A stretch of DNA of 45,069 nt from Syntrophales bacterium (GCA_023230905.1 JALNWL010000002.1:1-45069), one strand, 5' to 3'; shown: positions 11,300 to 15,145, numbered from the stretch's first letter. The notes: a model not told the origin generated them from the sequence alone. Numbers and translations: made by a program.

Positions 11300-14200
11300 A
11301 TGAAAAGGACAGAGGGACTCGCGTTGATCACCCGTATCGTTCGTCGGCTCAAGGCGTGGCGTGTTTATGTCGGACGAAATCCCCAAGGCGTTTCCGCCCC
11401 CGCCATCATCCTCCTCCCCGTTTTCAACGGGGTTTTTTTCTGCGGTTTTGCCGGCATCCTGGCGATTCGTTCGCACGAGCCGCTGGAGGACGATGCTCGA
11501 TCCCCCGGCCGGGACGTCCTGCCGCGCTTGACGCGGATCGCGCTCGAGCTGAAGGGCAACGGGCTTGAAGCGGTTCTCGAAGGAAGTGTGAGCCCGGGGG
11601 AATATCTGGCGCCGGAGGCGGGCGATCGCGGACCCGATGGTCAGAGCCCGGCCGGTCTGGAGCCGCTGGTCCGGTGCTTGAAGGAAACACGCTTCTTTCA
11701 GGCGCTTTTTTTTGATTCGGATCGTGTCCACGCTCTGAGCCGGCTGGTCGCGGATCTGAAGGCGTTCCTGGCCGATGAGGAGCGCCTGCTGGAGGATGCC
11801 GCCGGACGGTTCCGGACGGAGACCCTGGAGATCGTCAACAGCCGGCTGGTTTCCCTCAAGGATGCGGTGTGGTCCCTGGAAAAGGACGTCCTGGAGAATG
11901 TCGGTCGGATCGCGGCCCTGGCCGGTGCGGGCCGCGACGTCGACGTGGCCGCGTTTCGCAAGCTCCACTACCTGAACTTCCTCCTGAACGGTCTCGACCG
12001 CCTGGAGGTGCGCGGACGGGATTCGGCGGGGATACAGATCTCCTTTTCCTTGTCCGATCCGGAGGACTGGCGCCGAATTCGGCGGGAGTTGAAGGCGCGG
12101 AACCTCGACGAGGCGTTCCGAAAGCGGTCGGCGCCGGGAGATCTTATCCCGGGTTCCATCTCCGTGTTTCCGCCCGACGGGGACACGGATCCCGCAGGCC
12201 AAGCGGGCAGGACCGTTGCCTTCACGTTCAAGACGGCCTCGATCATCGGGGAACTGGGGCGGAACGTTCGGGACCTCCGTCAGGCAATCGCCGGGGACGA
12301 GATCTTTCAGCTCATCGTCCGTCACCCGAGCGCGGCGGAGCTTTCCATGGCGCATACGCGCTGGGCGTCCGTCGGGTCCATTACCGTCGAGAACTGCCAT
12401 CCGGTCAACAACTTCGCCCCGTCGGGTTCCGACGCCGGGACGGAAAGAACCCGTCCCCGTCCGGGGCGGTCCGTCGGGTCGATCAGCGTCGTCTTGAACG
12501 GCGACATCGACAACTACGCCGCGTTGAGGGACGCGCTGGAGGCGCGGGGAGAGACCGTTGCCGCGGAAGTGACTACCGATACGAAAATCATTCCCCTCGA
12601 GATCGAGCGGTATCTGCGGGGGGGGGACAAGCTGACCGAGGCCTTTCGCCGCGCCGTCGCGGGCTTCGAAGGGTCGCACGCCATCGCCATGACCGCCGAC
12701 TGCGCGCCGGGAAAGGTTTTCCTCGCCCTGCGCGGCAGCGGCCAGTCCCTCTATGTCGGCCTCGCCCCCGACCGCTACCTGTTCTCGTCGGAACTGTACG
12801 GTCTGGTGGAGGGGACCTCCACCTTTCTCAAGATGGAGGGGGAGGCGCCATCCCGCGGCCGTGGGGCGGCGATGCCGGCGGGACAGATCGTCATCCTCGA
12901 CCGGGATTCGCCGGGCGGACTGGCCAGCCTCCGGGCCCTTCGTTATGACGGAACGCCCTTTCCCCTGACGGAAGACGATCTCCAGCGGGCGGAGATCACC
13001 ACCCGGGACATCGACCGGGGGGCCTACCCCCACTATTTCCTCAAGGAGATCGAAGAGTCCGTTCTGTCGGTCCGGAAAACCCTCCTGGGGAAATACCGCC
13101 GCACCGCGGATGCGAAGACGGGGCCGGAGGTGCGTTTCAATCTGGGCGTGGATATTCTCCCGCAGCCGCTCCGCGGGCGCCTCGAACGGGGAGAGCTCGA
13201 CCGGATCGTGGTGATCGGCCACGGCACGGCGGCCGTGGCCGGCCAGGCCGTCGCGGATGCCCTCGCGCGCGATCTGAAGGGAAGCCGGATCGTCGTCGAA
13301 ACCCGGCTGGCCTCGGAGTTGAGCGGGTTTTCGCTGGAGGATGAGCTCGCATCCGCACTCGTGATCCCCATCACCCAGTCGGGGACGACGACGGACACCA
13401 ACCGCGCCGTGGCCCTGGCGCGGGAGCGGGGGGCGGCCGTCATCGCCATCGTCAACCGTCGTCAGTCGGACATCACCACGAAGGCCGACGGCGTTTTCTA
13501 CACGAGCGACGGCCGGGACATCGAGATGTCCGTGGCCTCGACCAAGGCCTTTTATTCCCAGATTGTCGCGGGCCGCGTCCTGTCCCTCTGCCTGGCCCAG
13601 CTTCTGGGCACGCTGACCGACGCCGCCATCGACCGCGAACTGGCCGTCCTGGAGCGGGCGCCGGAGATGATGCGGCGGGTCCTCGAAAGAAAGGACGAGA
13701 TCCGGGCGGCCGTCGATCGGCTGGCGATCCGGAAATCCTCGTGGGCGGTGGTCGGCAGCGGTCCCAACAAGGCCGCCGCCGACGAGGTCCGGATCAAGTT
13801 GAGCGAGCTGTGCTACAAGACCATCTCGACCGACGTTGTGGAGAACAAAAAGCACATCGACCTGTCGGCGGAGCCGCTGATCCTCGTCTGCGCGGCGGGG
13901 AGTCCTGAAGCGGTCATGGGCGATATCGTCAAGGATGTGGCCATCTTCAAGGCCCATAAGGCTACCGTGGTCGTCTTCGGCGACGAGGGGGACGACCGCT
14001 TCGACGACACGGCGGACGCCGTCATCCCCATTCCGCGGGCCCCGTGGCCGCTGCCGGTCATCCTGAATACCGTCGCCGGCCACCTGTGGGGCTACTTCGC
14101 CGCCCGCCGGATCGACGCGGACGCCCTGTTCCTCCGTGAGTTCAGGAGCCGGCTGAACCGGCAGATGGCGCAGGGCCGGCGGGAGGGGCAAGCCCTCTTC

Positions 14201-15145
14201 GAGATGATGGCGGATCGGGCGTATCGCCAGATGGTGCGCGCCTTTGCGGCCGGTTTTCAGGAGCGCCGCCGGGCCGGATCGTTTGCCCTCCTGAGCGTCG
14301 GGACCATCGCCGACCTCGTCCTGCTTTTGAAGTACGCCCTGGGCAAGCTGCCTCTGGACGATTTCTGGGAGGATTTTCCGGGGGAGAGGGAGACGGCCTC
14401 GCCCGTCGATCTGCTCGACATCGCGCTCGGCCACGCCGTCGACGAGCTGTCCCGGCCGATCGATGCGATCCGTCACCAGGCCAAGACCGTGACGGTCGGA
14501 ACGAGCCGGAAGGAGCTGTTCCACCGGGGGGTGATCTTCGATCTCCTCAAGGAATTCGGCTTCTCGCTGAAGGGGCTGGTGAGCAAGAACATCCCGGATA
14601 TGGTCCGGATTCAGAAGGCCGTGGCCGCCGTGACGGGCTACACCTTGTACGACATCGAGCCCCTGGACGGCGAGGGGCGTCCCGACGAGCGGTCTCTGAT
14701 CCGCATCCGGCAGCGCGGCGGCGTCGCCCTGAACATGGCGTCCCGGGCCGAAGGGGCGGCCGCCCTGATGGGAACCAAGCGCACGATTCTCAACACCGGG
14801 AAGATTTATGCGGGCTACGGAAAATCCGACGGCGCCCCGCTGGTGATGATCCCCCTCTGGGGGGAAACGCGCGGGGTGCGGCATCTGCTCCTCGTTCACG
14901 TGCGCTTTGCCGACGCGCTGTCGACGCAGGAGAAGCGGGAGATCCTGGGGGTCCGCTACCAGGATCTGAGGAACCTCGTCAACGAGTACAACCTGCCTTG
15001 GGAGGATCGCTACCTCGAAGACCTCCCGATCGGCGTTCTGCTGGATGAAGCGGTCGAGGTGGTTGCCGGGCAGATCCGCGCCCGGGTCGGGCCGGCTGCG
15101 GGGGCGGGAAAAAGACAAACATTCAGGCAAGAGGAGTCTCTATGA
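11300..15145 (+). CDS. giant GlmS-like glutamine amidotransferase (class II) / double-SIS isomerase protein with extra domains
   Basis: GlmS signature motifs appear in order: C48-[13 protein letters not shown] (aa 238), [29 protein letters not shown]1 ([17 protein letters not shown]), SIS2 ([19 protein letters not shown]), and a C-tail-like AKTVTVG (aa 1061). Total 1281 aa against about 610 for canonical GlmS. Confidence 0.85.

Follow-up and report, generated by a model that had tools for sequence, protein, structure and literature searches.

A long GlmS-like protein with a conserved leader, two helical inserts and an internal lid motif in a Syntrophales bacterium and a large family of relatives

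Introduction

The enzyme GlmS (glucosamine-6-phosphate, or GlcN-6-P, synthase) produces the first of the amino-sugar precursors of the cell wall; it is essential, intensively studied and an antibiotic target. To our knowledge, the textbook form of the enzyme, about 610 amino acids (aa) long with a Met-Cys start and a free C-terminal lid, has been assumed to be universal in bacteria. Here we describe a gene for a GlmS-like protein of 1281 aa that lies on the plus strand at positions 11300..15145 of a 45,069-nucleotide stretch of DNA from a Syntrophales bacterium (GCA_023230905.1, JALNWL010000002.1:1-45069). This whole stretch is referred to below as the window, and nucleotide positions are counted from its first letter. 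An initial annotation, made without database searches, had noted that the protein is unusual both before its nucleophilic Cys and after its lid motif, and had proposed that it is either a processed, regulated variant of GlmS or an enzyme that acts on a different phosphosugar. We have followed up that proposal by searches of sequence and profile databases, structure prediction and a comparison of gene neighbourhoods.

Results

The locus and the long glmS gene

The gene, called long glmS here, stands in the order moaC, a small unannotated open reading frame (ORF), a fis-like gene, a gene for a left-handed beta-helix (LbH) protein, long glmS and pyrG, and this order recurs across Syntrophales. 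It is a single uninterrupted ORF of 1281 codons and a stop codon. Pfam finds in its product the domains that the initial annotation had suggested looking for, GATase_6/7 at aa 347-502 and SIS at aa 634-761, and the best NCBIfam models are two GlmS models that span aa 340-941 with scores far below their cut-offs. A first round of homology searching yielded more than 120 full-length clusters of 1227-1307 aa with 55-61% identity to the protein, chiefly from Syntrophales and other 'Deltaproteobacteria' metagenome-assembled genomes; the names on these clusters are just 'SIS domain-containing protein' or automatic GlmS labels. The protein departs from canonical GlmS in four respects: a leader of 47 aa, a helical insert of about 160 aa, a second helical insert of about 110 aa and a domain of about 200 aa beyond the lid motif.

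At its extreme 5' end (11278-11310) the window has one A more than the gene for a 99%-identical protein (P0001), reading GAAAAGG where the other has GAAAGG. The extra A places an upstream ATG (11278) out of frame and makes ATG 11300 the predicted start, so that about seven unconserved N-terminal residues are affected. The difference reflects an indel from sequencing or assembly, or else variation between strains.

The catalytic inventory and folds of GlmS are kept

All of the GlmS landmark motifs are present in the canonical order; each is invariant in an alignment of 121 close homologues, in which conservation was scored, and nearly so in 58 distant ones. All features of the gene lie on the plus strand. 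The nucleophile Cys48 (TGC, 11441-11443) and the first strand of the glutaminase domain occupy 11441..11470; C48 and G49 are the equivalent of Cys1 in E. coli GlmS and align with Cys1 of those relatives that start with Met-Cys-Gly. The core of the class II, or N-terminal nucleophile (Ntn), glutaminase domain follows at aa 216-565 (11945..12994) and contains R238-G-R-D-S-A-G (E. coli R26), H-T-R354-W355-A-S (R73/W74), N400-G401 (N98/G99) and D427 (D123). The isomerase domain, composed of two SIS subdomains, occupies aa 566-945 (12995..14134), with Q-S-G-T-T-T-D-T at 693-700 matching the phosphate loop (the S347-T352 loop), A-S-T-K at 746-749 matching the A-S-T-K of GVASTKAF, K833 and E836 corresponding to K485/E488, and H852 to H504. 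Finally, Q-A-K1062-T-V-T-V-G is the equivalent of the K603 tail.

Structure prediction agreed with these assignments. AlphaFold2 was run separately on aa 1-625 and aa 565-1281 with 84-sequence alignments, and gave a mean per-residue confidence (pLDDT) of 89.9 and a predicted TM-score (pTM) of 0.88 for the N-terminal half, and values of 91.8 and 0.79 for the C-terminal half. When the models were searched with Foldseek, the N-terminal half matched the glutaminase domain of E. coli GlmS (1xff, TM 0.81), with PurF and asparagine synthetase as weaker matches, and the C-terminal half matched the isomerase domains of E. coli, human and Candida GlmS/GFAT with TM 0.86-0.89. At the sequence level the closest solved relative is again E. 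coli GlmS (E = 5e-24, over aa 394-935). The protein thus has the glutaminase residues, the double SIS, the lysine-tail motif and, as described below, the UDP-GlcNAc-pathway context of the GlmS/GFAT family, and it lacks three of the family's features: a Met-Cys start, a tail at the extreme C-terminus and a score above the hidden Markov model (HMM) cut-off.

A conserved leader precedes Cys48

The leader, a putative propeptide, occupies aa 1-47 (11300..11440) and is conserved in the 121 close homologues and in 69 of 73 related loci. Its core reads W-x-(I/V)-x-(V/F)-G-x-x-P-x-x-(V/P)-x-x-P-(A/S)-hhh-F-P-x7 and then Cys; in those 69 loci the spacing is fixed, with FP followed by exactly seven residues and the Cys, and across the clade the leader is typically about 40-50 aa long. 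The codons ahead of Cys48 are GTT TTT TTC, with no ATG, GTG or TTG adjoining, just as the initial annotation had said in finding no plausible start beside the Cys. A canonical start at the Cys codon, which it had named as something to look for in orthologues, is the rule in most of the distant family members, which begin Met-Cys-Gly in the ordinary Ntn manner, but not in the leader clade, where a start-like codon immediately precedes the Cys in only 2 of the 69 leader-bearing loci; three of the 73 related loci have an ATG-Cys start.

The leader is restricted to a single clade that is mostly Desulfobacterota. In a rough neighbour-joining tree based on the core columns alone, the leader-bearing sequences group in one clade with one Met-Cys member nested within it, which suggests that the leader was gained once and has occasionally been lost; members without a leader that lie in or beside the clade are P0133, L057, L072 and L080. 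Because these leaderless members are interspersed, the two forms appear to be interchangeable, and because relatives outside the leader clade start exactly with Met-Cys, the family as a whole seems to depend on an N-terminal Cys. AlphaFold2 predicts the leader to be structured, with a helix at residues 2-19, strands at 22-24 and 36-38 and pLDDT values of 81-92. The value falls to 65 near residues 41-50, where the putative scissile bond is located.

Inserts, internal lid and C-terminal domain

AlphaFold2 places helical insert 1 (aa 58-215; 11471..11944) after the strand that carries the Cys and before helix alpha-1 of the glutaminase domain. The insert consists of helices throughout, two of which (140-170 and 173-207) are about 30 residues long, and has no Pfam match. 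From Cys48 to R238 of RGRDSAG there are 190 aa, as had been estimated at the outset together with the mostly helical character of the segment; the equivalent distance in E. coli GlmS we take to be about 25 aa. The insert is family-wide: the Cys and RGxDSAG are 157-185 aa apart in nearly all loci scanned, with an outlier of 255 aa (L077).

Helical insert 2 (aa 946-1051; 14135..14452) lies between the second SIS subdomain and the lid motif in the AlphaFold2 model. It too is all-helical, with pLDDT mostly above 90, is conserved across the family and has no sequence match in Pfam or the PDB. Query residue 935 aligns with E. coli residue ~589, and K1062 follows about 127 aa further on, against about 15 in E. 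coli; the inserted length by this alignment is about 110 aa, in good agreement with the 100 or so first described. The internal lid motif, or C-tail (aa 1052-1072, with K1062; 14453..14515), is the equivalent of the ...LAKSVTVE-COOH end of GlmS. The resemblance that the initial annotation had drawn between AKTVTVG and that terminal lid is borne out, since HQAK(1062)TVTVG is invariant in the 121 close homologues (as is a longer, 20-residue stretch in a set of 25), nearly so in distant ones, and predicted to be flexible: residues 1063-1069 are the sole low-confidence segment in the interior of the C-terminal half, which fits a mobile element.

Beyond TVTVG1067 there are 214 aa, exactly as first counted, most of which form a C-terminal alpha/beta domain (aa 1073-1267; 14516..15100) that is conserved and predicted with pLDDT above 90. 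As read from the DSSP string, it has a 2+3 antiparallel topology in which a few short helices separate two long strands from three others. Its conserved polar residues (S1148, R1149, K1160, D1177, H1200 and E1229) suggest a functional site. Pfam found nothing consistent in this region of the query or in 25 members, a profile search of PDB sequences gave a chance match only (E = 1), and no hhalign comparison with the SIS1, SIS2, glutaminase and insert regions of the same protein reached a probability of 1%. Foldseek searches of the PDB and BFVD with the whole C-terminal-half model returned lists filled by SIS matches. The structure prediction that had been proposed for the extra regions has insert 1 and the C-terminal domain as folded, and neither has a consistent match in Pfam. 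The extra regions are not unconserved low-complexity sequence, the objection that the initial annotation had foreseen: column identity to the query is 34-88% per 20-aa block, gaps are almost nil and AlphaFold2 folds them confidently.

Among the full-length sequences inspected (1050 aa or more), the C-terminal domain occurs only at the C-terminus of the long-form family, with one oddity. Apparent stand-alone proteins of 333-345 aa start at a conserved internal Met (..M(V/A)GHL(W/F)GY..) and were rejected as truncated gene calls, so that the domain is seen in the long-form architecture alone. The oddity is a repeat protein of 2581 aa (P0266), in which there are 23 matches to positions 159-215 of the domain profile (E = 2e-24). 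These may stem from its composition or repeats, or reflect a small module that is distantly related.

The long form is a large and widespread family

When a profile of aa 945-1281, which takes in insert 2, the lid and the C-terminal domain, was run against 1.84 billion cluster representatives, it matched 536 clusters (50% identity) at E <= 1e-3. The full-length members among them are 1073-1277 aa long, are 29-52% identical to the query (33-52% if P0244 is left aside) and share the same whole layout. In a scan of one genome per species, at least 590 species had a relative. The best 80 of the 590 or more species belong to Syntrophales, Smithella and Desulfobacterales, and the cultured Desulfamplus magnetovallimortis is among them; further members were found in Planctomycetota, Candidatus Xenobia, Schekmanbacteria and a large clade of Acidimicrobiia. 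The phylogenetic survey for which the initial annotation had called thus extends the family to at least 590 species in several phyla, where the long form is annotated as 'SIS domain-containing protein'.

Judged by sequence comparison, it is both inserts together with the C-terminal domain that characterise a large, widespread family, and the leader alone is clade-specific. The first picture of a peculiar enzyme consequently stands for the leader and not for the inserts and C-terminal domain, which are common to a big family whose members mostly start Met-Cys. No curated family that names the long form exists in NCBIfam release 20 or in Pfam, where there are sub-threshold or partial matches only, and we found no published description of a long GlmS or of a GlmS propeptide in the literature. 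As far as these searches show, the long-form architecture is uncharacterised.

Hexosamine-pathway genes in the neighbourhood

Genes neighbouring long glmS were counted in 86 sources, upstream or downstream within flanks of up to 8-10 kb. The commonest is pyrG (49 of 86), followed by genes for the LbH protein (33), glmM (20), a nagB-like gene (14) and an NrpR-like gene (8). In the window, a nagB-like gene (about 32340-33293) and glmM (about 33406-34752) form a pair on the minus strand (32265..34821), located by tblastn with the proteins of locus L019 at 62% identity along their whole length; they lie 17 kb from long glmS, and in other genomes the pair is contiguous with it. Thus the order in L008 and L019 is long glmS, LbH, glmM, nagB-like and pyrG, with an NrpR-like gene after long glmS in L019, where GlmM exceeds the TIGR01455 equivalog cut-off (577 against 447.6). 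In the Desulfobacterales loci L062 and L073, LbH and glmM, joined in L062 by the nagB-like gene, are directly upstream of long glmS. In Acidimicrobiia (L084 and L085) the order is rplM-rpsI-glmM-[long glmS]-acpS-nnr-alr/tsaE-tsaB-tsaD-groES-groEL, and glmM again passes TIGR01455 (450 against 447.6). The interval between glmM and acpS is, we presume, the glmS slot in the actinobacterial gene order (M. tuberculosis Rv3443c to Rv3417c). For regarding the long form as the working GlmS, this positional orthology in a second phylum is the strongest argument. A canonical glmS was found neither in the 45-kb window nor in the sequences flanking 85 related loci.

The upstream neighbour of long glmS in the window encodes the LbH protein of 419 aa (9802..11061, plus strand). 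Its N-terminal half is the beta-helix and bears a weak likeness to the acetyltransferase domain of GlmU: NCBIfam GlmU models match aa 13-234 far below their cut-offs, and PDB GlmU chains match with E = 7e-4; the C-terminal half (about 185 aa) is helical and has no family match. In a weak and unreliable alignment to GlmU (22 bits), the GlmU catalytic His is not obviously conserved. The protein could act as a free-standing GlcN-1-P acetyltransferase or have a regulatory part as a partner. Where both genes occur, LbH is beside glmM in most of the loci inspected.

Downstream lies pyrG, for CTP synthase (15142..16749, plus strand; Pfam CTP_synth_N and GATase), whose start codon overlaps the stop codon of long glmS in the sequence ATGA (15142-15145). 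This overlap suggests that the two genes, both for glutamine amidotransferases drawing on UTP-linked pools, are coupled in translation. Elsewhere, pyrG is sometimes on the strand opposite to long glmS.

The nagB-like (Glucosamine_iso) protein exceeds NagB in length by 50-90 aa and does not reach the NagB cut-offs. The NrpR-like regulator is encoded between long glmS and LbH in L019 (10051-11271; Pfam NRD1_2 and a winged helix, E = 1e-82), and tblastn matches to it flank seven more loci of Smithella/Syntrophales type (L015, L017, L031, L034, L036, L049 and L055). NrpR is a 2-oxoglutarate-responsive nitrogen repressor of methanogens, and its relative hints at nitrogen-status control of the cluster. 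PADLOC models of defence systems had no matches. Elsewhere in the window (27137-29617, plus strand), and unrelated to long glmS, is an ORF of 826 aa that by eye has an N-terminal extracytoplasmic and membrane region and a C-terminal Ser/Thr protein-kinase domain (HRDIKPANI).

Discussion

The long gene has GlmS-like glutaminase and isomerase folds, a full catalytic inventory, a hexosamine-pathway context and extra modules that are conserved and predicted to be folded. We favour, with a confidence that is moderate, the reading that it encodes the organism's GlcN-6-P synthase in a previously undescribed long form, made as a precursor with a removable leader and possessing a tethered lid; the housekeeping GlcN-6-P synthase is the best reading of the sequence comparisons. 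In the first description of the protein as a processed, regulated GlmS variant, the word GlmS is favoured by the invariant residues, the folds and the glmM context, and it is 'processed' and 'regulated' that we infer. Several observations weigh against the reading. Identity to E. coli GlmS is just ~25%, the curated GlmS cut-offs are missed (TIGR01135 and NF001484, 234 against 418 and 261 against 381 bits), and canonical motifs are altered, with KHGP replaced by KHID, GETADT by GTTTDT and S303 by Ala. In both length and conservation the leader goes far beyond typical propeptides of MEROPS family C44, and as an integral structured element of the AlphaFold2 model it might be kept in the mature enzyme. 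A sensor role for the C-terminal domain is speculative.

The low identity, the sub-cut-off scores and the altered residues, which stand beside catalytic positions (KHID, GTTTDT and GTA), would also suit a specialised paralogue, a glutamine-dependent ketose-phosphate aminotransferase/isomerase that acts on another sugar phosphate or serves a dedicated glycan while a canonical GlmS encoded elsewhere does the housekeeping. The deep, long branch that separates the family from E. coli GlmS in the tree is in keeping with this, as is an LbH partner in which the weak alignment reveals no obvious counterpart of the GlmU catalytic His. However, the residues that bind or convert fructose-6-phosphate (Fru-6-P) in GlmS are all invariant, a bona fide glmM adjoins the long form in two distant phyla, and in Acidimicrobiia the gene occupies the glmS slot. 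Across Syntrophales the locus (moaC-fis-...-pyrG) is a housekeeping one, and no glycan-cluster genes are consistent neighbours. We therefore regard a paralogue as unlikely; the 'different phosphosugar' of the initial annotation is made less likely by the invariant catalytic residues and the hexosamine context, while the ~25% identity and the scores below cut-off speak for it. As to a frameshift or assembly error that has merged separate genes, which had also been foreseen, the one-base homopolymer difference from P0001 (A4 against A3) could be cited in its favour, but that difference moves the predicted start by seven codons only, within an unconserved region, and the layout of 1070-1300 aa recurs in hundreds of independent assemblies from several phyla. 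Such an artefact is excluded because more than 500 full-length or partial relatives have the same architecture, and we give it practically no credence.

Two other explanations concern the leader. Its basic residues and a hydrophobic stretch followed by Cys recall an export or lipoprotein signal peptide that signal peptidase II would cut before the Cys, but this is barely conceivable. There is no lipobox, L-(A/S)-(G/A)-C, and the residue before the Cys is mostly Cys, Asn or Phe, with Ser and others also found, and the residues ahead of it do not suit a lipobox either; neither the W-x-I-x-V-G-x-x-P and FP motifs conserved in the leader nor its predicted beta-strands resemble a signal. Moreover, the substrates Gln and Fru-6-P are cytoplasmic, lipidation of the thiol would abolish the nucleophile and the leaderless relatives are plainly cytoplasmic. 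The proposal of a lipoprotein signal is effectively refuted. Alternatively, the leader could be retained and the Cys stay internal, with the glutaminase inactive or re-purposed and the enzyme either using free ammonia or acting mainly as an isomerase-deaminase (GlcN-6-P/Fru-6-P) or as a sensor. AlphaFold2 gives a confident, structured leader within the domain, the habitats inferred from the taxa are anaerobic and rich in ammonium, and the leader is far longer and more conserved than the 'few amino acids' of known propeptides (PMC9140057). Yet R354, W355, N400, G401 and D427 are invariant in the leader-bearing proteins, as in the relatives that start Met-Cys-Gly, and members without the leader are nested in or beside the clade. 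We consider retention quite improbable because invariant glutamine-site residues are hard to explain without glutaminase activity, which needs a free Cys alpha-amine.

Glutaminase activity in the Ntn fold requires the alpha-amine of the Cys to be free. Class II amidotransferases (MEROPS C44) autocatalytically remove the residues ahead of the Cys, and the propeptide is described as 'a few amino acids' (PMC9140057). By analogy, the long form in the leader clade is probably made as a zymogen from which the propeptide is removed autocatalytically. Under the favoured reading, that of a long-form GlmS, the protein would be translated as a 1281-aa precursor in which the conserved leader of 47 aa packs against the glutaminase domain and masks the alpha-amino group of Cys48. 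The thiol of Cys48 would then cut the Phe47-Cys48 bond autocatalytically by the N-to-S acyl shift known from other Ntn enzymes, making Cys48 the new N-terminus and turning on glutamine hydrolysis. Ammonia would travel along a channel gated by W355 to the isomerase site, where K1062 would form a Schiff base with Fru-6-P, E836 would act as the base and H852 would open the ring, giving the overall reaction Gln + Fru-6-P -> GlcN-6-P + Glu. In this protein the lysine tail would be a loop tethered at both ends, to insert 2 on one side and the C-terminal domain on the other, rather than a free C-terminus, and therefore movement of the domain could gate the sugar site. Lid closure, and hence activity, would probably be coupled to the position of the C-terminal domain, for example on the binding of a metabolite, and the predicted placement of the lid between extra domains suggests allosteric control. 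Insert 1 would form a long helical arm, perhaps for oligomerisation or for contact with the C-terminal domain.

A broader proposal, which we put forward tentatively and think rather unlikely as a whole, is that these bacteria control entry into amino-sugar and cell-wall synthesis by means of a GlmS zymogen, whose conserved, structured propeptide would hold the glutaminase inactive up to the point of a regulated autoproteolysis, and a ligand-sensing domain that gates the lid, in place of RNA-based controls; the helical arm may drive assembly with LbH-type partners. GlmS is controlled through RNA elsewhere, by the glmS ribozyme in Firmicutes and by GlmY/GlmZ. Neither a glmS ribozyme nor a member of any other Rfam family was found here, so RNA-based control of the kind used in Firmicutes is not evident.

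The long form would represent a widespread second architecture of GlmS, one that breaks the rule of the free lid and, in the leader clade, that of the Met-Cys start, and that automated annotation leaves unnamed. If it is the sole GlmS of its carriers, metabolic reconstructions will wrongly score their hexosamine pathway as incomplete; the carriers affected include syntrophic and sulfate-reducing bacteria that are important in methanogenic digesters and sediments. The leader would be a clean case of a long, conserved putative propeptide on a class II amidotransferase, and the tethered lid with its new C-terminal domain offers a possible new allosteric control over the supply of cell-wall precursors. 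For the amidotransferase specialist the surprise is the internalised lid and the long conserved leader on a GlmS, the core chemistry being probably ordinary. A whole bacterial group may build and control its essential GlmS in a way that has not been studied.

Comparison with known systems places these features in context. Like canonical GlmS (E. coli; PDB 1jxa, 2j6h and 4amv; TIGR01135), the long form has an Ntn glutaminase followed by a double-SIS isomerase with the same order and identity of catalytic residues, a glmM neighbour and the same fold (TM 0.81-0.89); unlike it, the long form is twice the length and has both inserts, an internal lysine tail, an extra domain of about 200 aa and, in one clade, the leader. 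Eukaryotic GFAT1/2 (PDB 6r4e, 6svp and others) offers a parallel as a GlmS relative with added regulatory parts and with feedback control at the level of the protein, and over the part in common its isomerase domain gives a match of TM ~0.45-0.5. The additions of GFAT are short loops in the glutaminase domain; it starts Met-Cys, its tail is truly C-terminal and it has no extra domains, whereas the inserts of the long form are at other positions and are not homologous. B. subtilis PurF and the large subunit of glutamate synthase (MEROPS C44) share with the leader clade encoded residues ahead of the nucleophile Cys, and PurF structures were matched by Foldseek. The propeptide of B. subtilis PurF is 11 aa long, and such propeptides are short and poorly conserved, in contrast to a leader of 40-50 aa that is conserved, has a fixed spacing and stands on a GlmS-type enzyme; we found no precedent in the literature for a long, conserved, structured leader on an enzyme of that type. 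Lastly, the SIS-fold GlcN-6-P deaminase NagB-II and other SIS sugar isomerases have the double-SIS fold and the phosphate-binding loop in common with the long form, but they have neither a glutaminase domain nor a lysine lid, and the long form scores 49 bits against the NagB-II model NF046059, for which the cut-off is 430.

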